Positions 2,226 through 62,098 of a stretch of 64,000 nucleotides of DNA are shown piece by piece (within the stretch, counting starts at the first letter, position 1; the number at the start of each line of letters is the position of its first letter). The translations under genes were made by a program, and so were the position numbers. Under the pieces are notes generated by a model. That model saw only the letters and a program-made list of their open reading frames with translations, did no database searches and was not told the DNA's origin. Source of the DNA: a virus (lineage: Duplodnaviria; Heunggongvirae; Uroviricota; Caudoviricetes). The stretch lies in the IMG/VR virus record IMGVR_UViG_3300018475_000004; one strand, given 5' to 3'.

Positions 2226-3365
2226 TTAAACCTTTGGGAACTCGTAGTTAGGATTGTAAGTGGACTCAGCATAAGCCTTAACTTCACTTACATAAGCAGT
2301 GCTATCCCAAACAGAGCCAGCAATATCCATCTGACCCAACAAGCTAGCATCAGCGTAAGCGCAGATGTTGTTAGCCAACATAGCTAGAACGCCGACCTTC
2401 TTATAGACGTGAATATCACGAGAACGGTCATAGTTATTGAACTCGTCAACAATGGTATTACCCTCGAAAGCAATCTTCACAGGCTTGGTGTCAGCACCAG
2501 CGGGGATGATGTAGCAGTAACCAGGATTGATTACCTTGCGCATATTGGTCTCATCCTCTAAGCCCTGGGGTAGAATAACAACCTTACGTCCCTTGTAAGT
2601 AGCCAAGTGACCAGTATCCCACAACTGCTGCTTCATGGACTCAGTGTATCTCCAACCCTCGGTAGGAACCATCTTTACGGCAAACTCGTAAGTGCAGTAA
2701 ATGGTAGGCTCACCGTAAGCAGAAGCGATAACCAACAAGCGATCGAATTCCTGCTCGTCGAAACCATTAACAACAGCGATATTAGCAGGAGGCAACTGAT
2801 TGATAGAAGCAGCTAGTGCATGACCAACTTCCTTCATGATCAACTCGTTCATGCCTTCCATGACGATATTAGTTACTTCAGCGAAGTCAACACGTCCATC
2901 CAAGAACTCTTCGAAGCCGATCTGAGCAGCTCCACCGATGGCGCTAGTGCGGACTTCGAAGCTCTCTTCTTCACTAGGACCTAGCTTGAAGACTTCGTAA
3001 ATACCTGCTAGACCAACGCGAGTTACGAACTGCTTAGCGCGCTGACGAACGTCTCTCTTACGACGGAAAATAGGCTTGTCGCCCTGAGCGAACTGCTTGG
3101 TCTCAGCAAACTGCATATAAGCCTGCTCAACCTTCTTAGGCAGAACCTCGTCCATAGTCTCTTCGATAACTGCGAAGATCAGGTGCTTGTTCTCACGATA
3201 CAAAGCGTAAGTACCAGCAATCTCATTGAATTCACGGCGTAGAGTCTCATTTAGAGTCTCATAGTTAAAACTTTCGCCATTGAAGCTGTAAGAAACAGGA
3301 GCAGAAGGGTCAGCTTTTGCTACAGTCTTTGCCAGCTGTACTAAATTTTTCTTATCTAAAGCCAT
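2226..3365 (-). CDS. Major capsid protein (probable HK97 fold)
   Basis: 379 aa, strongly biased codons, follows scaffold and decoration-like genes, followed by terminator; no TAG. Confidence 0.75.
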   Translation of the reverse strand: MALDKKNLVQLAKTVAKADPSAPVSYSFNGESFNYETLNETLRREFNEIAGTYALYRENKHLIFAVIEETMDEVLPKKVEQAYMQFAETKQFAQGDKPIFRRKRDVRQRAKQFVTRVGLAGIYEVFKLGPSEEESFEVRTSAIGGAAQIGFEEFLDGRVDFAEVTNIVMEGMNELIMKEVGHALAASINQLPPANIAVVNGFDEQEFDRLLVIASAYGEPTIYCTYEFAVKMVPTEGWRYTESMKQQLWDTGHLATYKGRKVVILPQGLEDETNMRKVINPGYCYIIPAGADTKPVKIAFEGNTIVDEFNNYDRSRDIHVYKKVGVLAMLANNICAYADASLLGQMDIAGSVWDSTAYVSEVKAYAESTYNPNYEFPKV

Positions 3366-3384
3366 TATACTTCTCTCCTTTCAA

Positions 3385-4203
3385 TTACTTAATTCTAATA
3401 ACCTTGACACCAGGCTGGTGGTCAGGCATAGTGTAAACCTTAGCAACCTGCCATACCATATCGCCAGAAGCATCAGCAACAGGCTCTAAGATACCATCGG
3501 CAGCACGAGGAGCCAATAGATCGAACTCCTTCAAAGAGCCGGGTTCAGCATGGATTAGGTTGGTAGTGTAGTGGTCACCAACATTAGTCTTGAATACACG
3601 AGGAACCATAGTAGTACCTGCGGGCATCATCTTCTCCTGGTAATCACGCAACTTCATGAACAATCTCTTACGAGCGTCTCCCTCGATTTCAGGATTGTTG
3701 ATGTCGTTCATCTCATAGTAGTCATGTACGCTAGAAATAACGCTGTAATCAGCAACTTCGCCAGTCTCAGGATTCTTGATTTCATCCAACTGCTCGAAAG
3801 CGCCGGTAGTAGGATTATAACGCTCTCTTACGCCGTTCATGAAACGGGTAGGACCGTACATCTCCTCAGGCTTGGTGTGATCCAATGGGCTATAAACACG
3901 AGCCTGATAATTGTCTTTTAACATTGCGAACTCGCAATCTAACTGATGCTCACGATACAACTTGATTTCGTTATAAACAAGCATCCACTCGCCTGCACCA
4001 GTAAAGTTTACAAGGCCAGCTGCATAGTCATACTTAACAAACTGTCCCTGCTCTAGAACCTTAATAGCAGGATCAGCAGGCAACTGAGCATAAATCTGAG
4101 CAGTTCTCTGAGCGCTTAGGTGGTTGGGTTCAACCTGACCGTAGCCGACTTCTACGAACTCTGCCTGAGACTTAATATGCTTCTTCAATAATTCTCTAAG
4201 CAT
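3385..4203 (-). CDS. Putative capsid decoration/structural protein
   Basis: 272 aa between scaffold and major capsid; VEPNHLSAQRTAQIYAQLP motif; biased codons. Confidence 0.55.
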   Translation of the reverse strand: MLRELLKKHIKSQAEFVEVGYGQVEPNHLSAQRTAQIYAQLPADPAIKVLEQGQFVKYDYAAGLVNFTGAGEWMLVYNEIKLYREHQLDCEFAMLKDNYQARVYSPLDHTKPEEMYGPTRFMNGVRERYNPTTGAFEQLDEIKNPETGEVADYSVISSVHDYYEMNDINNPEIEGDARKRLFMKLRDYQEKMMPAGTTMVPRVFKTNVGDHYTTNLIHAEPGSLKEFDLLAPRAADGILEPVADASGDMVWQVAKVYTMPDHQPGVKVIRIK

Positions 4204-4230
4204 TTCTATTTTCCTCCTTATTAGTTTTTA

Positions 4231-5757
4231 TTACATTTCACTCGCAACAGAACGCAAGGCTTTAATCCAAGCGGGAACAGTCTCGTCCGCAGGAACTCCA
4301 CCATCCAAATTATAGGTGGTTACGCCATTGTTCTTATCATCATCAAGGTTGAAACTGACCTTGTTGCGAACACAAATAATTGATAGCTTAGCTTCAATAT
4401 CATCCAGAGAATAAGTATCGATGTTCTCAATAACATCCTTCTTGTCATCATCAGACAGCATATAGAAACTGTCAATCATTTTCTCTTTTTCTGCCTTTTC
4501 AATGGACTTCTTAAATGCAGTCAACTCACCAATCTGAGCTTCTAGGTCAGCGATTTTTTCCTGAGCAGCATTATAATTAGTCTCCAAGTCAGAATATTTG
4601 GAGCTTAGCTCTACATATTCTTGAATTTCATCAAGATTGTATTTTTCTTTCTTGCCCTTTTTCTTTTTATCGTCGTCATCTTCGTCTTCGCATTCACACT
4701 CAGACTTAGGCTTGCCGCACTTAGGGCACTTTTCTTCCTCGCCTTCGCCATCTTTCTTTTCAGGCTCGTCATCATCTTCATCCTTCTTGGCGGCCTTCTT
4801 AGACTTGGCATATTCATCAACAGCGACAGGATCAAACTGAGGCTCTTCAGATGGAGTATACTCTTCCATCAAAACAGGTTCAGCAGCGAACTCAATTACG
4901 CCGTCTTCAGCGATGGAGAAATCTAAACGGTAATACTTATCATCGGCAGTAACAACAGCGAACTTCTGCTCACCATCTTCACATACGCTCTCAATAACGT
5001 AAGCATCTTCAACGCGACTATAAAGAGCGGTCCATAAAGCGTCACCGATTTCAACAGCATATCTAGTAAACACTTTTTCTCCTCCTTTATTCAAATATTC
5101 TTTCAATTCGTTCATCATAGAGAATAGTTGCTCTTTAAAGCCATCTTCAAAAGCGAATTGAATGGTAGGTGCAGTAATGTTGGCACCCTCGAAGCAGGGT
5201 TCATTACTTTCACCAAGAGTACAAAGTTTTGAAATAATTGCTTCATTGATAATAAAGAATTTGGGATCTCCATTACCATCTTTTGACCAATGAGCATCTA
5301 ATGTACCTTCATCCAATTCCATGGATTGATTATTTCCATGTGCCAGGATTCTGCGGCACTCTGGATATTGGCCGGTCCATAACCAGCCCTCAGTCATCAT
5401 ATACTCTCGCTCAGTCATTCCATCATCCAAGAACTTTTGGAACCAAACTTTCGCACTCAAATCAACGAAACCGTATGGGCGAGTAGTATCCTTGATCTCG
5501 AACTTTCCATTGGAAATATCAATGATACGATTGTGCTCCTCAAAGTCGCCCTTATCTTCATTATAAAAACCAACGATAGGGCATCCTGGCAATGAATTAG
5601 CCATTTGCTTTGCAACTTCTTTGGTGATGATACTACGGTTACGATTTGGTTCATCGCTTACGTAGCACACCTTAATCTGACATTTAGAAATCAAAGGATT
5701 GAGAGGAGTAATGTTGATAAACTCAACAGGTGTATCTAACTTAATACTTGTATGCAT
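4231..5757 (-). CDS. Prohead protease/scaffold protein
   Basis: 508 aa between portal and capsid; N-terminal protease-like region (QSMEL, PCFEGA), acidic/lysine-rich linker, C-terminal coiled coil. Confidence 0.65.
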   Translation of the reverse strand: MHTSIKLDTPVEFINITPLNPLISKCQIKVCYVSDEPNRNRSIITKEVAKQMANSLPGCPIVGFYNEDKGDFEEHNRIIDISNGKFEIKDTTRPYGFVDLSAKVWFQKFLDDGMTEREYMMTEGWLWTGQYPECRRILAHGNNQSMELDEGTLDAHWSKDGNGDPKFFIINEAIISKLCTLGESNEPCFEGANITAPTIQFAFEDGFKEQLFSMMNELKEYLNKGGEKVFTRYAVEIGDALWTALYSRVEDAYVIESVCEDGEQKFAVVTADDKYYRLDFSIAEDGVIEFAAEPVLMEEYTPSEEPQFDPVAVDEYAKSKKAAKKDEDDDEPEKKDGEGEEEKCPKCGKPKSECECEDEDDDDKKKKGKKEKYNLDEIQEYVELSSKYSDLETNYNAAQEKIADLEAQIGELTAFKKSIEKAEKEKMIDSFYMLSDDDKKDVIENIDTYSLDDIEAKLSIICVRNKVSFNLDDDKNNGVTTYNLDGGVPADETVPAWIKALRSVASEM

Positions 5758-10732: not shown

Positions 10733-11785
10733 TTACACGCTTTTGGCCTTCGCATTTCTACAGCATTTGCAAATGCTATAAAAACCATCTCGGCTTGTCT
10801 TATTTTTACTAAAGTATTTATTGTGAGCTAATTTGACTTGCCCGCAACGACTGCACTTTTTGTATTTGCCCTTCATTTCATTCATGAAGTACCAATTTAA
10901 GAGTCTATCTTCCGCCTCGGACGCAATGATCTTTGGAATTTTATTACGCCATAAACTTGAGATATATTCCAAACTATGCTTGATCCCAAACTCCATTTGG
11001 ATTTTTTCTTGAATATCAATATTTTGTAATCCATCAATTTTATACTCAACAATTCGTTCATACAATGGATAATTTTTCAAAGCAGCATCCGCAACTCTGT
11101 CAAAGTCATCCATCAAGTACCATAAATCTTTTTCAAACTCTCCCCAACTTTCTTGTTTACATAAGGAGTAGTTACAAAGAATTGCTGAGACTACTTTTGG
11201 ATTACATAAAGAAACACCCTCTGGAACAATATAGCCTTCGTCATCAAACCAGAAATCATCATCTAAAGGAATATCGTGTCTTGAACGAGTGATTTTAGTT
11301 GGTACAATTGGTTTACGATAAGCGTTCTTCAAAACATATTGATCTTTTCGCAATTCAATAATTGTACTCTTAATAATAAATGCTTCTCGCCCGGAGGCAC
11401 TCTTTAATTTTGTTTCCCACATTTTGATGGCGTCGCGCAATTGCTACATACCGGGTATTTCTTCTACATCTTGTTTAGTTATCATTACTTTTGGCTGGAA
11501 AATCGTATTCTTATTATTAGTTATCATATTATAAATGCCGTCTTCGCCATTCTCTAGCTGGGAAACAAGACCTTCATAAGAAGTTTCTCGCTTATTGACT
11601 GTAGCCATACGGTTATCAGTTAATAGTTTGCGCTCCTTTTTCTCTTGTTTCTCCATACAGAGAACTAGATAATCAGCTAAAGTTTCTAGATACGCCTCTG
11701 AGGGATTAGGGGTTTCAGCTAGAATTTTTTCAACCAATTCTCTTCTCTCTTCTGGAGATTCTAAAGTATAATCTAATTTCAACAT
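10733..11785 (-). CDS. Putative transcription regulator with helical domain and C-terminal Zn finger (code 15, 350 aa)
   Basis: ORFs 11444-11785 and 10733-11440 join through TAG 11444-11446 (EEIPGM*QLRDAIK); C-terminal CSRC...CKCC. Confidence 0.6.
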
Positions 11786-21475: not shown

Positions 21476-22246
21476 TACGAAAGCCACCCCATTTTTGGGG
21501 TGGCTTTTTCGGCGCGGCGCCCACGGTTGATGGGCGCCGAAATTTTATTATACCACACCGCCAGCCAATTTGTCAAGAGGAAAATTGCACAAATAATAAA
21601 TAATTATTTTTCCCGATTTTGTGTATTTTGCCAATTGCAATCTGGGGGCAGATGTGGTATAGTATTGGTGTCAAGGGGAGGGAACGCCTCGGGAGTTGGG
21701 AAACCCACGCTAGGCGTCGAACTGTTGGCAGAGGCTGTGTACGACCCAACCTTCCGGCACGCAACTTTCTTGAAGAAACTTCAAGAAACCCCTTGACAAA
21801 TCCCCCAAGTTGTGATACAATGTAAGAGAAGTCAAGAGGTTAGCCGTGGTCGGAGGCGGTAGGGCTTGCGGAGCAAGTGACCACAAGATGACCGAACAGA
21901 AGGAAATCTGAAAAAAAACCTCTTGACAAACTCCCCAAGATGTGTTATAATAAGGGTACAAAAGAGGGAAGCATGGCAGAAGTCGTTGAGACAAGACCCA
22001 CGAGAGTCGTGTCAGACCATGACGACAAAGTCCTCGACCGCACGGTCGCTCCGTTGTGCGGAATATAAATGTGAACCAATCCCGAGGCTGTATTAGGGAC
22101 TAGGTGGAGTGAAAGCCAAAAAAAAATTCAAAAAACCTCTTGACAACTGGCTCAAGATGTGATACAATAAGAATGTAAGGAGGAACACCTCTTACAGATA
22201 AATCAAATTTGGGTTGCGACCTACCGCAAGATTGGAGATCGATACT

Positions 22247-45931: not shown

Positions 45932-46654
45932 ATGCCAAAAACTGGTGAAAATCTTGTTGGTAATACCTATCATAGACTTACTGTTTTATCAAAAAATATA
46001 GAAGCATCAAAACGACATAAACGACCATACTGGGATTGTAAATGTGAATGTGGTAATATAAAAACCATTGCTGGTTTAAGTCTCAAAAATGGAGCAACGA
46101 AAAGTTGTGGTTGCTTGAGAAATGAAAAAGTTTTTGAAGCATTAGCTAAAGATGAAAAAGGTAATGTTTACGGTAAACTTACTGTTCTTGAGATGGACTC
46201 AGAAAGGGATAATTTTGGTCGTATAAAATGGATTTGTAAATGTGAATGTGGTAATATAAAATCAATTAGTGGATCAGACTTACGAACTGGTAATACAACT
46301 AGCTGTGGATGTTTTTCTAGGATTTCAAAAGGTGAACAAAAAATTATTGATATTTTAGAAGAATATCATATTTCTTATATTAGAGAATATAAACCAGAAA
46401 ATTTAGGTCAAAAACGCTTTGATTTTGCCATTTTAGATAATAGTAATAAAATTATTCGTCTAGTTGAGTATGATGGTGAACAACATTATCATGAAAGTAA
46501 TTGGGAGCGTAGTAAATTGTCTCGTACTCAAGCATCAGATGCAGAAAAAAATAATTATGCTATTATAAATAATATTCCATTGGTTCGAATTCCATATTGG
46601 GAATATGATAATATGAATTATGAAATGATTTTTGGAGAAACATTTTTAGTGTAA
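45932..46654 (+). CDS. Free-standing homing-type endonuclease (CxCxCG/SCGC repeats plus Vsr-like domain)
   Basis: Two WxCKCECG...SCGC repeats; SKGE, RFDF, VEYDGEQH, LVRIPYW. Confidence 0.8.
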   Translation: MPKTGENLVGNTYHRLTVLSKNIEASKRHKRPYWDCKCECGNIKTIAGLSLKNGATKSCGCLRNEKVFEALAKDEKGNVYGKLTVLEMDSERDNFGRIKWICKCECGNIKSISGSDLRTGNTTSCGCFSRISKGEQKIIDILEEYHISYIREYKPENLGQKRFDFAILDNSNKIIRLVEYDGEQHYHESNWERSKLSRTQASDAEKNNYAIINNIPLVRIPYWEYDNMNYEMIFGETFLV

Positions 46655-46667
46655 AAGGAGAATTTAT

Positions 46668-46982
46668 ATGGCTCGTGGGCAAATTGCAAAAAATAATGTG
46701 GAACAAAAAATAAAAGAAGCGTTCGGTTCTGATTTCATTGGAACTTACGACAAAAAACTGTATGTGTGGGCGACAGAAAACGGTGAGCGAATTCAAATTG
46801 CACTGTCTTTGACCTGTCCTAAGGTTCCTGTGGCAATTTCTGATAATCCCACTACTGGAGATTTCAACTTTGAAGATGATGCTCCTAATGTAGTGGTTGC
46901 GGCCGGAGCATTCCAGCCAGCAGAAATTACTACTGAGGAAAGAGAGCGCGTCAATGATTTGATGCGGCGTCTCGGTCTGTGA
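46668..46982 (+). CDS. Conserved hypothetical phage protein
   Basis: 104 aa, AAGGAG RBS. Confidence 0.7.
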   Translation: MARGQIAKNNVEQKIKEAFGSDFIGTYDKKLYVWATENGERIQIALSLTCPKVPVAISDNPTTGDFNFEDDAPNVVVAAGAFQPAEITTEERERVNDLMRRLGL

Positions 46983-51858: not shown

Positions 51859-52147
51859 ATAGTCGGATAGGAGACTATATAATCAAAACCCTATCGTCAA
51901 GACCGGCATCAGGAGATCCACATCATTGGTTTCCTTTCTGTGGTACTTTTGTCATTGTGTTTTTCATTTTATGCCTCCTCATAAAAAATATACAGCGCGA
52001 TGTGGCTGCCGGAAACGTATCCTTTTCTATATATCTCGAAATATATAGAAACAAAAACTACTATATAGCAGAGAGTTTTTACATCTAGGCTCGGGTGAGT
52101 TTGTTTTTTACTCTGCTATTTCTAATGAAAAATTTCGGAGGAATATA

Positions 52148-53170
52148 ATGCAAGATTTATCAATTATTATTCCTGTTTATAATAATCGAGCAGGCTTAAT
52201 TTCGACTCTGTTATCTATTGGTGAAATCGCATAGACTGTCCTTGATTGGGGCATTAAAGTTATCATAGTTGATGATTGTTCTACCGAAGTGAACTATGAT
52301 GACATTCCTCAATTATTTACTTCATTTGTAGATATAACTTTATTTCGATTATCTGAAAATTCAGGACCAGGTCAAGCAAGACAATATGGTTTAGACCATA
52401 GTGATACTGAATATGTTATGTTTTTGGATGCAGGAGATGTATTATCTTTTCCAACTCATTTTATTCAGCTAATGGATTTGGTTTTGCGTCATCCAGATAT
52501 TAAAGTATTTTCATGTGGTCGAGAAGGTATTTCTGATACTCGTCAAATAGGCTATGTTGGTCCAGCGCATAATAAAATTCATGGAAAAATTTATCGATTG
52601 GATTTTCTGAAAAATTATAATATTAGATTCATTTCTGATCATTATTATTCAGAAGATATTGGATTTAATTTAGCTTGTCGATTAGTTTGTGCAGAATTAG
52701 AGCGACGAAAAAATGAGACTCAATTATTTGAATTTCCTAAGCCGATTACAACTGAATTATTCGATGGAAATTCTATTACTCGTAAAAATAATGGTGAGTT
52801 TAAATATACCGAGAATTATGGTCTTGGGTATAATTTAGTTCATGCTCTTGAAATTGCTTTATCGAACGGTGTTCATCCTTCTATTATTGAAGTGTATGGA
52901 TATGAAAATTTAATCTGTCAATATATTTTCTTTTACGAAGCATATACCCATCAAAAAGGTCTTGAAAAAAGTTTAGAGGGATGCCGTTATTGGTATCGAA
53001 ATTTTAAGTATTGTATTCCTAAATTCAATGAGCAATTACTAACTAAAGTATATAATGATATGATGAAAAAATTATATGCAGAAGATGTAGAATATGCTTT
53101 CAATACAACTATTCCTAAATTATCTTTTTGGGATTTTATAAATCTTCTGGAAAAAGAAGATAAAGAGTAA
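52148..53170 (+). CDS. GT2-family glycosyltransferase (code 15, 340 aa)
   Basis: MQDLSIIIPVYNN...GEIA*TVLD...IIVDDCSTE joined through TAG 52232-52234; GPGQARQYG, FLDAGD, SEDIGF motifs. Confidence 0.9.
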
Positions 53171-58493: not shown

Positions 58494-58901
58494 ATGTTAT
58501 TTGAAACAAATCGTGACAAAGGTCGCGCAGGTATGGCAATGGCAATTGCCTATTTTGGAGCCAATGGATACACTGTGAATGTTCCTCTAAATGATACTCA
58601 ATGGTATGATTTAGTCATTGAAAAAGATGGTGAATTTAAGACAGTCCAATGTAAAGCAACTGGAAGTTCTGATAATACTATTTCTTTGAGAAGTACTGGC
58701 GGAACCAAGGGCGGTACGTATGATAATGTTCTTAATCATCCAGTTGATTATTTATTCTGTTTAGATGGAAATATGAATATGTATGTCATTCCAGTAGCAG
58801 ATATGAAAGAATATGGCTGTAATAAACAAATTACTCTCCGCACTCAAAAATCTGCAAATGGATAGGGTTTTCAAACTTATCAATATCAGGTGTCTTTATA
58901 A
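58494..58901 (+). CDS. Small PD-(D/E)XK endonuclease (group-I-intron-associated / I-Ssp6803I-like; code 15)
   Basis: KGRAG..A.AYF...GY.V..PL.D...YDLVIE......VQCK; TAG 58863-58865 read through to TAA 58899-58901. Confidence 0.75.
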
Positions 58902-59001: not shown

Positions 59002-59771
59002 AGAGGTTCAAACCTCTAAAAAATGAATACCATTCGCTGCGAATATAGGCGGGGCATCCTTTCATTCCCAAAGTCCTCGTAGGGTAAAACGTGAGAACTG
59101 CTCCTATGGCTGAAGGTTCTCGGTGGTATTTGAACTAAATAAGGTTTCACTCCGCCTGGTGACTGTGGTGAAACGATATATCCCGACCCGTGCTGATACG
59201 TATCAGATATTTAGTTCGACGCCCCATATGCGTTAATATGGTAGGTTTTCTTTTGACTTTTACCTCAAGCACATAGTTTGATTTTTTCGCTAAAAAGTCA
59301 AAGAGCAGTTTAGTGTTAAAAAGAAAGTGAGACCTTTACTTATAGTCTACGGTCTGTAAGATAAAGTAATCTCCGCTAAGTTGCGCTTCCCCAGACGAAT
59401 AAATAAATCTGAGCGCCTCTATCGCGAAATGGATAGATGATATTGGGTAGCGATAATTGATTGCAGATTTGCCAACTGCCTTAATGTATAATGATATTAG
59501 AAATCTTGTAGGAACTGACATAGCACATGGACCCCAATTCCATGGTCAGGCAACGAAAAGCAAAAGGTGAATACAAGTGGAAAATCCATATTGAATGATG
59601 ATAAGAGCCGATGGTAAATTAGAAGCAGGTCGGTAGTATATGGCGACTCGTTGTAGTCAGCGCATATAAAGTAGGCTCAAGTTAGATTTCAATGTGGATT
59701 TTTTCTATCCTTTTTACTTTGAAAAGTTGATTTTCTAAAAAATTTTTTGTATAATATATACATAAGAAATA

Positions 59772-59842: not shown

Positions 59843-59918
59843 GCCAGTATAGCGTAATTGGCAGCGCAACTGACTTGTAATCAGTAGGTTGTCGGTTCGA
59901 GTCCGACTACTGGCTCCA
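59843..59918 (+). tRNA. tRNA-Thr(TGT)
   Basis: Cloverleaf, U73, CCA. Confidence 0.92.
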
Positions 59919-59946: not shown

Positions 59947-60726
59947 ATGCAGGGTGCTATATTTTCAGGTTATGATGCCCGAGATTACAAATTGGTTTAC
60001 ACCGCTTCTGGCGTAGAATTCCCCGCTGAATTTGAGCTGAAGATGCGTGGTATTAAGAATTAGGGTGCGGTCGGCAGCTGTGTCGCTCACTCTTTAGCTA
60101 GTATTATCGAATACTACAACTATACTCAAACTGGTGATCCCAGTGAAATGAGTGTAGGCTATATTTACGGAAACCGTAATACTTCTGACTATAAAGAGTC
60201 AGGTATGATTATGCGTGATGCTCTTGAAGTTGTTCGTAAATATGGCGACGTCAAATATGATTTATTCCCTTACAATCGTGAAGTCCCCGAAATGATTGAT
60301 CTTTATGAGCGTCAGGGTAAGAAATTATTCAAGCAAGGTTATCCCAACCGCATTAGTCAGTATGCTCGTGTTACCAGTTTCAATGCAGTAAAGGCTGCTT
60401 TGATGGCTGGCAATCCTGTTCTAATGGCTATGTGCTGGTTCGCTGATATGGAAGTTGATGATGAAGGTGTTCTACGCACTGAATTTAAAGGCTACGATGG
60501 CGGACATTGTATGTTCATCTATGGCTGGGATGAGCGTGGCTGGAAGGTCCAGAACTCTTGGGGTGAAGATTGGGGAAATCATGGATGTATGATTATTCCT
60601 TACGATATGCCCATCGAAGAAGTTTGGACTTTGACCGATAATGTAATTGAGAATACTAAGACTAAGAAACCCCATAAGTGTATCGCAAAAGTATGTAATG
60701 CTATTTCTAAAATTTTCAAAAAGTAA
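59947..60726 (+). CDS. C1 (papain-family) cysteine peptidase (code 15, 259 aa)
   Basis: IKN*GAVGSCVAHS (TAG 60061-60063 at oxyanion Gln), GGHCM, VQNSWG motifs. Confidence 0.92.
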
Positions 60727-61667: not shown

Positions 61668-61849
61668 TGGGACGCCGCAAGAAAAGACCTGAACTATCTT
61701 ATCACTTCTGGCTTGATACAGATGGATGCTGGTTCTGCAAGAAGAAAAATGCCTGCGGTGGATGTAAAGTATTGAAGCGCTACATCCATGAAAAAGAGAG
61801 AAGTCAGAGAAAAATTTCTCGTGACGAGAAGCGTTGGCTTGACTTTTGA
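61667..61849 (+). CDS. Small basic Cys-cluster protein
   Basis: 60 aa, CWFC..CGGC, TAATG coupling. Confidence 0.6.
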   Translation: MGRRKKRPELSYHFWLDTDGCWFCKKKNACGGCKVLKRYIHEKERSQRKISRDEKRWLDF

Positions 61850-61875
61850 AATTTTTTTTAGTATAATAAATACAT

Positions 61876-62023: not shown

Positions 62024-62098
62024 TGCGGTGTCGTTCAAAGGTCAGGACAGGGGTCTCTAAAACCTCGGATGTGAGTTCGATTCTCACCGCCGCTGCCA
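62024..62098 (+). tRNA. Amber suppressor tRNA (anticodon CTA), probably Gln
   Basis: GGGGT-CTCTAAA-ACCTC arm, U1:U72 mismatch, G2-C71, G73, CCA. Confidence 0.9.

Follow-up and report, generated by a model that had tools for sequence, protein, structure and literature searches.

The stretch of DNA analyzed here (the window) comprises 64,000 nucleotides of the IMG/VR record IMGVR_UViG_3300018475_000004, a virus of the Caudoviricetes; the phage record itself spans 138.8 kb and is 67% complete. Towards its end, within a tRNA island, the window carries a gene for a papain-family (C1) cysteine peptidase whose codon 39 is an in-frame TAG, followed downstream by the gene for an amber suppressor tRNA(CUA). 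The TAG falls on the glutamine (Gln) of the oxyanion hole, and in the relatives of this gene in-frame TAGs are concentrated at codon 39 and earlier, upstream of the codon for the catalytic cysteine. Coordinates of the peptidase, its functional residues and its surroundings are given in Table 1.

Table 1. Features of the peptidase locus in the window (nt, nucleotides; aa, amino acids; ORF, open reading frame)
Feature	Position	Strand	Remarks
Promoter-like site TTGATT-17-TATAAT	59727..59755	+	Consensus match only; before small-RNA cassette, tRNA-Thr and peptidase
tRNA-Thr(UGU)	59843..59918	+	28 nt upstream of peptidase start; same pairing in L001
Predicted C1 (papain-family, xylellain-like) cysteine peptidase, coding sequence	59947..60726	+	259 aa with TAG=Gln; stop TAA
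TAG codon = Gln39, oxyanion-hole glutamine	60061..60063	+	Translation, HMMER alignment and invariant column
TGT = catalytic Cys45	60079..60081	+	Aligned to xylellain / cathepsin K
Met68, first in-frame ATG after the TAG	60148..60150	+	Downstream of Cys45
CAT = catalytic His187	60505..60507	+	Aligned to xylellain / cathepsin K
CAG = Gln202, conserved-glutamine control	60550..60552	+	Directly before Asn203
AAC = Asn203, orients catalytic His	60553..60555	+	Aligned to xylellain / cathepsin K
Conserved basic amphipathic C-terminal helix, residues 244-258	60676..60720	+	AF2 model and conservation
121-aa ORF, no predicted membrane helix	60740..61105	+	Kept in all syntenic relatives
Promoter-like site TTGACT-17-TATAAT, 11/12 matches	61839..61867	+	Consensus match only; before suppressor tRNA unit
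Amber suppressor tRNA(CUA)	62024..62098	+	1.3 kb downstream of peptidase; U1 unpaired with U72, G73

The gene product matched Pfam PF00112 (Peptidase_C1) with an E-value of 4.7e-16 and 60 bits (curated cut-off 20.7 bits) and phrog_16701 ('peptidase') with an E-value of 4e-23. In HMMER alignments, Cys45, His187 and Asn203 fell on the catalytic residues of xylellain (3OIS) and cathepsin K, and all three were invariant across 49 homologs. An AlphaFold2 (AF2) model derived from the alignment of these 49 homologs displayed a papain fold (predicted local distance difference test, pLDDT, 92; predicted template modeling score, pTM, 0.89), for which Foldseek returned xylellain 3OIS as the top match (TM 0.73, E 5.5e-17), followed by papain and cathepsins. 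The start codon is preceded by a ribosome-binding site (AAAGGA, 8 nt upstream), and the N-terminus (MQGAIFS...) is kept among homologs. Ratios of non-synonymous to synonymous substitution rates (dN/dS) ranged from 0.03 to 0.17 versus relatives, which indicates purifying selection; versus close relatives they were 0.03-0.04, at a synonymous divergence (dS) of up to 0.93. The identical protein was also found on several metagenome contigs, including contigs of 203-206 kb. Judged by homology and modeled structure, the gene encodes a working C1A, xylellain-like cysteine peptidase, its activity being predicted.

As in xylellain (3OIS) and other C1A enzymes, the Gln-Cys-His-Asn set is present and a short N-terminal segment precedes the mature domain; this segment holds a D-x-R-D-type motif that bacterial relatives show as well. 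The protein differs from those enzymes in being encoded by a phage, in lacking a signal peptide and a long propeptide, and in its C-terminus, a conserved basic amphipathic helix in the region of which K241, P242, A247, K248 and N251 are conserved. In two IMG/VR homologs (L017, positions 3980-5062, and L018), a coiled-coil spacer of ~90 residues lies between the peptidase domain and the basic tail (KKP...AK..N...), which suggests that the amphipathic tail may be a separate targeting element.

With the standard bacterial code (translation table 11), the reading frame ends at codon 39, whereas translation of TAG as Gln yields a single open frame of 259 aa. A first-pass annotation, made from the letters of the window alone, had claimed that the TAG encodes the oxyanion-hole Gln six residues before the catalytic Cys, that this Gln is highly conserved in C1 peptidases, and that only a 38-aa stub is made under the host code. 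All three statements hold. In HMMER alignments with 3OIS and cathepsin K, residue 39 coincided with the Gln in the Q-x5-C motif (Gln19 in papain numbering), six residues before Cys45, and Gln is present there only when TAG is read as such. The column was invariant in alignments A1, A2 and A4, none of which had been selected on column 39. The standard-code product is a peptide of 38 aa carrying no catalytic residue, and re-initiation at Met68 could give no active enzyme, since Cys45 precedes it. The further claim that the protease exists only under suppression was likewise borne out: the full-length protein is obtained only by read-through of the TAG, and gene callers using code 11 record, on 23 contigs, a 192-aa fragment that starts at Met68 and lacks Cys45.

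In-frame TAGs are widespread in this genome. The ORFs of the 138.8-kb record were called with TAG as a sense codon by construction and with crude start-codon calls; 114 in-frame TAGs were counted across 26 genes, for the most part in the virion block on the minus strand. Only with TAG read as Gln are the genes for terminase, portal and sigma factor intact, and a GT2 glycosyltransferase and the peptidase are likewise whole only on read-through. In the early plus-strand block (13377-47889), called genes are TAG-free save one ORF at the far end of the block (46632-46982, TAG at codon 6); besides the virion block, TAGs resume from the tRNA island onward. In this island the GT2 glycosyltransferase (51926-53170, plus strand) has TAGs at codons 41 and 103, and a PD-(D/E)XK endonuclease (58494-58901, plus strand) has one at codon 124. 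Heavily recoded late genes use TAG more often than CAG, e.g. a gene of 3129 aa with 122 CAA, 17 CAG and 36 TAG. In 74% of cases the in-frame TAG is followed by a purine at position +4 (A 46%, G 28%). The sigma-factor gene (10733-11785, minus strand; phrog_5767, E 1.7e-51) carries a TAG at codon 114, and late transcription itself may depend on the suppressor tRNA through this codon. At window position 22179 we noted a one-base difference between the window and the genome record. The phage is a large code-15 phage of Clostridia.

The window contains 36 tRNA genes. The U1 and G73 of the suppressor are shared by the phage's own two tRNA-Gln genes, and the suppressors of syntenic relatives have in common U1, a pyrimidine at position 72 and G73. 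The tRNA(CUA) of another recoded phage, L063 (1463-1538, minus strand), has a G1-C72 pair and A73, and so differs from the unpaired U1 and G73 of the window clade; hence suppressors of different origin serve TAG at one invariant Gln column. Neither a release factor nor a glutaminyl-tRNA synthetase (GlnRS) was found in the 67%-complete record, an absence that is weak evidence.

The peptidase also bears on the identity of the inserted amino acid. Most other TAG columns in the family are variable (E, K, D or Q), while TAG at Gln positions elsewhere was seen at Gln202 (L077) and at Gln2 of the window protein (L072/L112). Because column 39 is invariant Gln and the other TAG columns mostly vary, it constitutes good evidence for TAG=Gln, in agreement with the first-pass view of the site as the best single-site evidence for Gln. 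That the gene is a pseudogene, or that TAG is read as glutamate (Glu), pyrrolysine, tryptophan or tyrosine, appears highly improbable given the low dN/dS against close relatives, the recurrence of the identical protein on several metagenome contigs, the invariance of the column and the U1 and G73 that the suppressor shares with the phage tRNA-Gln genes. A reading other than Gln could draw on the E/K-rich composition of most other TAG columns, on the ARAGORN label 'Pyl', which this program gives to any CUA tRNA, and on the fact that many Bacillota make Gln-tRNA via a Glu-tRNA intermediate.

The codon at column 39 was surveyed in relatives with the degenerate DNA pattern K-N-[CAA/CAG/TAA/TAG]-x3-G-S-C-V-A-H, which prefers neither codon type. 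The pattern was run on IMG/VR, a metagenome collection and GTDB genomes, and homologs from Lak megaphages were added. Among 73 distinct genes (at least 30% identity, plus Lak), column 39 was CAA in 36, CAG in 26 and TAG in 11. The TAG-bearing genes (those of the window, L114, L088, L057, L162, L066, L178, L036, L124, L063 and Lak-A1) belong to at least five separate clades, namely (i) the window's own; (ii) L178; (iii) L063; (iv) L036/L124; and (v) Lak-A1. A quick IQ-TREE tree resolved the nine full-length TAG rows into seven changes, at least six of which are forced by well-supported branches. With dS between lineages of ~0.9 to >1, synonymous states are near-independent from one lineage to the next.

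Recoded phages that do not have TAG at column 39 were found as well. L065, 93% identical to the window protein, has CAG at this column in a TAG-free gene with a suppressor tRNA nearby. L072/L112 have CAA at column 39 but TAG at codon 2, and L063 has both TAGs. In L042/L099 and in L077 column 39 is not TAG, and the gene contains five TAGs each; L116 and Lak-B5 are also recoded with another codon at column 39, and L108 probably is too. At the oxyanion Gln, Lak-A1 (L150) has TAG and Lak-B5 (L151) CAA; there are 4-5 TAGs in the gene, of which in each phage one is codon 5 and another takes the place of Gly43 of the window protein. In a further relative, L019 (positions 2634-4628; IMGVR_UViG_3300031555_002381), the C1 peptidase harbors an intein with a LAGLIDADG homing-endonuclease domain right before the catalytic Cys (...KNQGSVNS, intein, CVGHS...); here the active-site loop that elsewhere carries the TAG is thus interrupted by a conditional element of a second kind.

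Two sources of evidence on the codon were rejected. The closest IMG/VR homologs (58-66% identical) have CAA or CAG at column 39 in TAG-free genes, but their phages are distant, with a terminase that is 27-28% identical or absent and that shows no internal stops; they were thus discarded as a test set of related code-15 phages. Full-length database proteins were not accepted as proof of CAA or CAG at the column either: the exact window protein with Gln39 is among them, so some database sources translate with code 15.

To analyze the position of TAG within the gene, the 33 TAGs of 14 recoded lineages were permuted at random over the Gln codons of the gene in which they occur. Eight of the 14 lineages had TAG at column 39 (expected 4.0, p=0.011). 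At codon 39 or earlier, 17 TAGs were observed (expected 9.1, p=8e-5), nine of them before codon 39 (expected 5.1, p=0.015), and 12 lineages carried some early TAG (expected 7.0, p=7e-4). The proportion of Gln codons that are TAG was 50% upstream of codon 39, 57% at this codon and 19% downstream (Fisher p=5e-4). In a rank test, which requires no cut-off, the median codon was 39 for TAG versus 123 for CAA/CAG (p=4e-4), and TAG was still earlier when column 39 was removed (p=0.005). The outcome that the first-pass annotation had named as a refutation, CAA and CAG being as frequent at this column as elsewhere, was therefore not observed: in recoded lineages TAG accounts for 57% of Gln codons here and for 19% further down the gene. 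The TAGs ahead of column 39 all lie inside the coding region, after plausible starts, and were located at codon 2 (L063, L072/L112), at codon 5 (Lak) and ~11-16 codons before the column (L036, L042/L077, L066, L178).

It is unlikely that this distribution arose by neutral drift, i.e. by silent CAG-to-TAG transitions which recur at column 39 only because the column must stay Gln. If so, other conserved glutamines should match column 39 and they do not, being seldom TAG in the same lineages (Gln202 1/10, Gln61 0/6); moreover, non-conserved upstream Gln codons are TAG-rich too, the rank test is significant even when column 39 is left out, and the share of CAG, the precursor codon, is flat along the gene in 54 unrecoded homologs (0.38, 0.41, 0.34). 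Drift would, however, be compatible with the window gene itself, in which one of seven Gln codons is TAG (a 1-in-7 chance of hitting column 39, weak taken alone), with the CAG of the suppressor-bearing L065 phage, and with the CAA or CAG of the IMG/VR relatives; as deduced from the codon table, AT pressure would make both CAA and TAG end states for an invariant Gln. The flat CAG share also rules out precursor supply as the cause of the bias. A mutational hotspot of the Dcm type (CCAGG) was excluded, as AAT or GAT always precedes the TAG of the column, and read-through context was dismissed because a preference for a purine at +4 would give Gln39 (next base G) no advantage over Gln202 and Gln61 (next base A).

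The first-pass annotation had attached importance to the catalytic role of the residue, and this part of its proposal was not upheld. TAG could in principle be favored specifically at the oxyanion Gln, for instance if this ensured that active enzyme results from genuine Gln insertion and never from near-cognate misreading. Column 39 does hold the most TAGs of any alignment column (11; the next has three), in at least five clades. Yet its TAG share of 57% equals the 50% of neighboring, non-catalytic Gln codons upstream, and Gln202 and Gln61 are rarely recoded. In unrecoded homologs 17% of all Gln codons lie at column 39 and 11% ahead of it; against this background, TAG is enriched ~1.5-fold at the column and ~2.6-fold in the codons preceding it. 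Six recoded lineages have CAA or CAG at the column, among them L042 and L077 with five TAGs each elsewhere. A gate tied to the catalytic residue is thus very unlikely. The enrichment of TAG is positional, not catalytic: TAGs accumulate up to codon 39, which precedes Cys45, and the catalytic Gln39 is hit as the sole glutamine that this 5' zone invariably offers. Nor would gating call for the catalytic site, since any TAG before Cys45 gates equally well.

The peptidase and the suppressor tRNA are close neighbors in several phages. In L057, L063, L065, L066, L112, L162 and L178, the peptidase has a tRNA(CUA) no further than ~2 kb away, which together with the window amounts to eight recoded loci; in L063 the tRNA is found directly upstream of the peptidase. 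L065, L057, L162, L066 and L112 are syntenic with window positions 59.6-63.6 kb, and it is these that represent the related code-15 phages on which the first-pass annotation had proposed to check the codon. A tRNA-island setting was observed at ~19 of 70 peptidase loci, recoded or not; examples are L027, L031, L035, L049, L051, L106, L110, L122, L153, L169 and the window (47.3-63.5 kb). Both promoter-like sites in Table 1 are sigma-70-like, the one ahead of the suppressor being near consensus, and peptidase mRNA and suppressor thus appear to be driven by host-type promoters.

A lysis-related function, also suggested in the first-pass annotation, found support in relatives but not at the locus itself. 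In Alicyclobacillus phage MMB025, the homologous C1 domain forms the N-terminal part of an annotated endolysin of 753 aa, which also comprises PG_binding_1 and a glycoside-hydrolase-like domain of the Rv2525c type. In Thermoanaerobacterium phage THSA-485A, a GH25+PG_binding endolysin is encoded immediately upstream of the peptidase, and a protein with a single membrane helix downstream of it. In L002-L008, the sister clade of the window clade, a conserved 134-aa protein with two membrane helices comes after the peptidase, and overall a membrane protein lies downstream of it in 11 of 36 loci with a readable downstream gene. The window peptidase has no membrane-protein neighbor and no cell-wall-binding domain, only the C-terminal amphipathic helix, and searches of the 67%-complete record for Amidase_2, Amidase_3 and GH25 found none, which is weak evidence. 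By the company its relatives keep, the window peptidase is probably lysis-associated. A limited literature search found no description of a papain-family (C1) endolysin or lysis-cassette peptidase.

The explanation that we regard as best, and to which we give about half of our belief, is that codon 39 is an ordinary code-15 Gln codon acting as an early, suppressor-dependent checkpoint in a probably lysis-associated peptidase, the catalytic identity of the residue being incidental. It builds on the dependence of the enzyme on read-through, the identity of residue 39 and the family-wide clustering of TAGs in the first 39 codons, all of which the data establish. The TAG would be read as Gln by the phage tRNA(CUA) encoded 1.3 kb downstream; with too little charged suppressor, ribosomes would release the 38-aa peptide, which has no catalytic residue, and synthesis of the enzyme would thereby be tied to suppressor abundance, in line with the translational gating of lysis genes modeled by Borges et al. 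(10.1101/2021.08.26.457843). Early clustering may have been selected because it makes a cheap and clean checkpoint, with no truncated enzyme and none before the code switch. More broadly, positive selection in code-15 phages might place amber codons near the start of genes for lysis-type enzymes, within a few dozen codons and before those for the catalytic residues, as a suppressor-timed checkpoint; this we offer tentatively, as possible though doubtful.

The main rival, which we consider rather unlikely, is that only cost matters: a leaky, slowly read TAG wastes less when it comes early and would be tolerated at the 5' end of any gene, as a kind of ramp with no timing function; Gln39 would then be TAG for lying in the zone of tolerance. 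This predicts the same positional pattern as a checkpoint. Genome-wide, the TAG share is 31-33% at codons 20-80 versus ~18% later, and the suppressor has a strong promoter-like site of its own in the island, so the tRNA may be present whenever the mRNA is. On the other hand, the odds ratio in the peptidase family is 4.9 compared with 1.4-1.8 genome-wide (17/32 vs 10/38, p=0.03), the crude start-codon calls could have inflated the genome-wide figure, and lineages that have lost the TAG of codon 39 tend to retain a different one very close to the start.

Several points weigh against a checkpoint in this gene. The sample is small (14 lineages, 33 TAGs), the cut-off at codon 39 was picked after inspection of the data (the rank test needs none), and column 39 alone is not significant on a conservative, if rough, count of events. 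Recoded phages with a TAG-free peptidase exist, among them L065 certainly and L108 probably. A 5' bias of TAG is also detectable genome-wide, with an odds ratio of 1.8 in the first 80 codons (p=0.025, on crude gene calls); as this weaker bias may hold for all TAG-bearing genes, a general effect of cost would fit, rather than a gene-specific gate. No weight was placed on this genome-wide figure, since the start codons had been called crudely. Suppressor tRNA and peptidase each stand behind a promoter-like site (consensus matches only) in one island, and given the suppressor's own near-consensus site, any gate may be a mere short delay. The role in lysis is inferred from distant relatives in an incomplete record; membrane helices were not found in the ORFs neighboring the window peptidase, and its neighbor is a soluble 121-aa protein amid tRNAs. 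Besides, canonical endolysins do no harm while in the cytoplasm, so that a gate would be less necessary.

Much of this recoding conforms to what has been described before. It is known from earlier work that TAG is recoded to Gln under code 15, that phages use suppressor tRNAs and that recoding preferentially affects late and lysis genes (10.1101/2021.08.26.457843; PMC10607447, on the phAss-1 group; PMC9523058; PMC7886860), with proteomic proof of TAG=Gln in crAss-like phages (PMC9523058), and conserved Gln columns are routinely used to infer the meaning of TAG (PMC10607447). Like the code-15 gut phages, the present phage has TAGs in late and virion genes, a TAG-free early block, its own tRNA(CUA), a Bacillota host signal and a TAG in a probably lysis-linked gene; searches of the partial record likewise turned up neither a phage release factor nor a GlnRS. 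Borges et al. describe Jade phages in which a code-change module adjoins the lysis cassette (10.1101/2021.08.26.457843); here, in comparison, the suppressor tRNA lies ~2 kb from the peptidase at eight loci, and the TAG-bearing gene is situated, unlike in the phages of that study, inside the tRNA island, upstream of the suppressor. The words 'peptidase', 'protease', 'catalytic' and 'N-terminal' do not occur in the Borges et al. preprint, and its lone use of 'position' does not concern placement within genes (10.1101/2021.08.26.457843). A limited literature search gave no report of 5' clustering of TAG in this peptidase family, nor of TAG recurring at the oxyanion Gln across at least five clades.

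Related principles operate in other systems. By analogy, the locus may resemble the bldA tRNA-Leu(UAA) and the TTA codons of Streptomyces (e.g. adpA; PMC10732093), where translation of particular genes likewise awaits one specialized tRNA, which makes a checkpoint at the level of the codon; there, however, the codon (TTA) is a rare one with a sense meaning, the ribosome stalls on failure but does not terminate, and the process serves host development instead of a phage code switch. As in classical amber mutants with supE-type suppressors, a Gln codon has changed from CAG to TAG and a Gln-charged tRNA(CUA) restores the protein, although in this case we are dealing with a natural, fixed state under strong purifying selection and not with a conditional-lethal laboratory allele. 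The enzyme can also be compared to modular phage endolysins with a cysteine-peptidase domain of the CHAP or NlpC/P60 type: MMB025 similarly fuses its C1 domain to wall-lytic modules, while the window protein, unlike such endolysins, comes without a cell-wall-binding domain or membrane-protein neighbor.

The TAG at the oxyanion Gln is one more instance of known code-15 recoding. For annotation, pipelines using code 11 give a 192-aa fragment that misses the catalytic Cys, and the family is consequently under-called in recoded phages. Column 39 is an unusually clean witness for TAG=Gln over Glu in a phage of Clostridia, which is useful as many Bacillota route Gln-tRNA through Glu-tRNA. With regard to function, the family looks like a papain-type lysis enzyme. 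If the early TAG bias holds genome-wide and across phages, the idea of recoding as a timer would become testable at codon resolution. Should early amber codons indeed be positively selected, the placement of recoded stops within genes would represent a general, undescribed regulatory layer, and the peptidase and the suppressor tRNA, tightly linked as they are, would belong to a single module.

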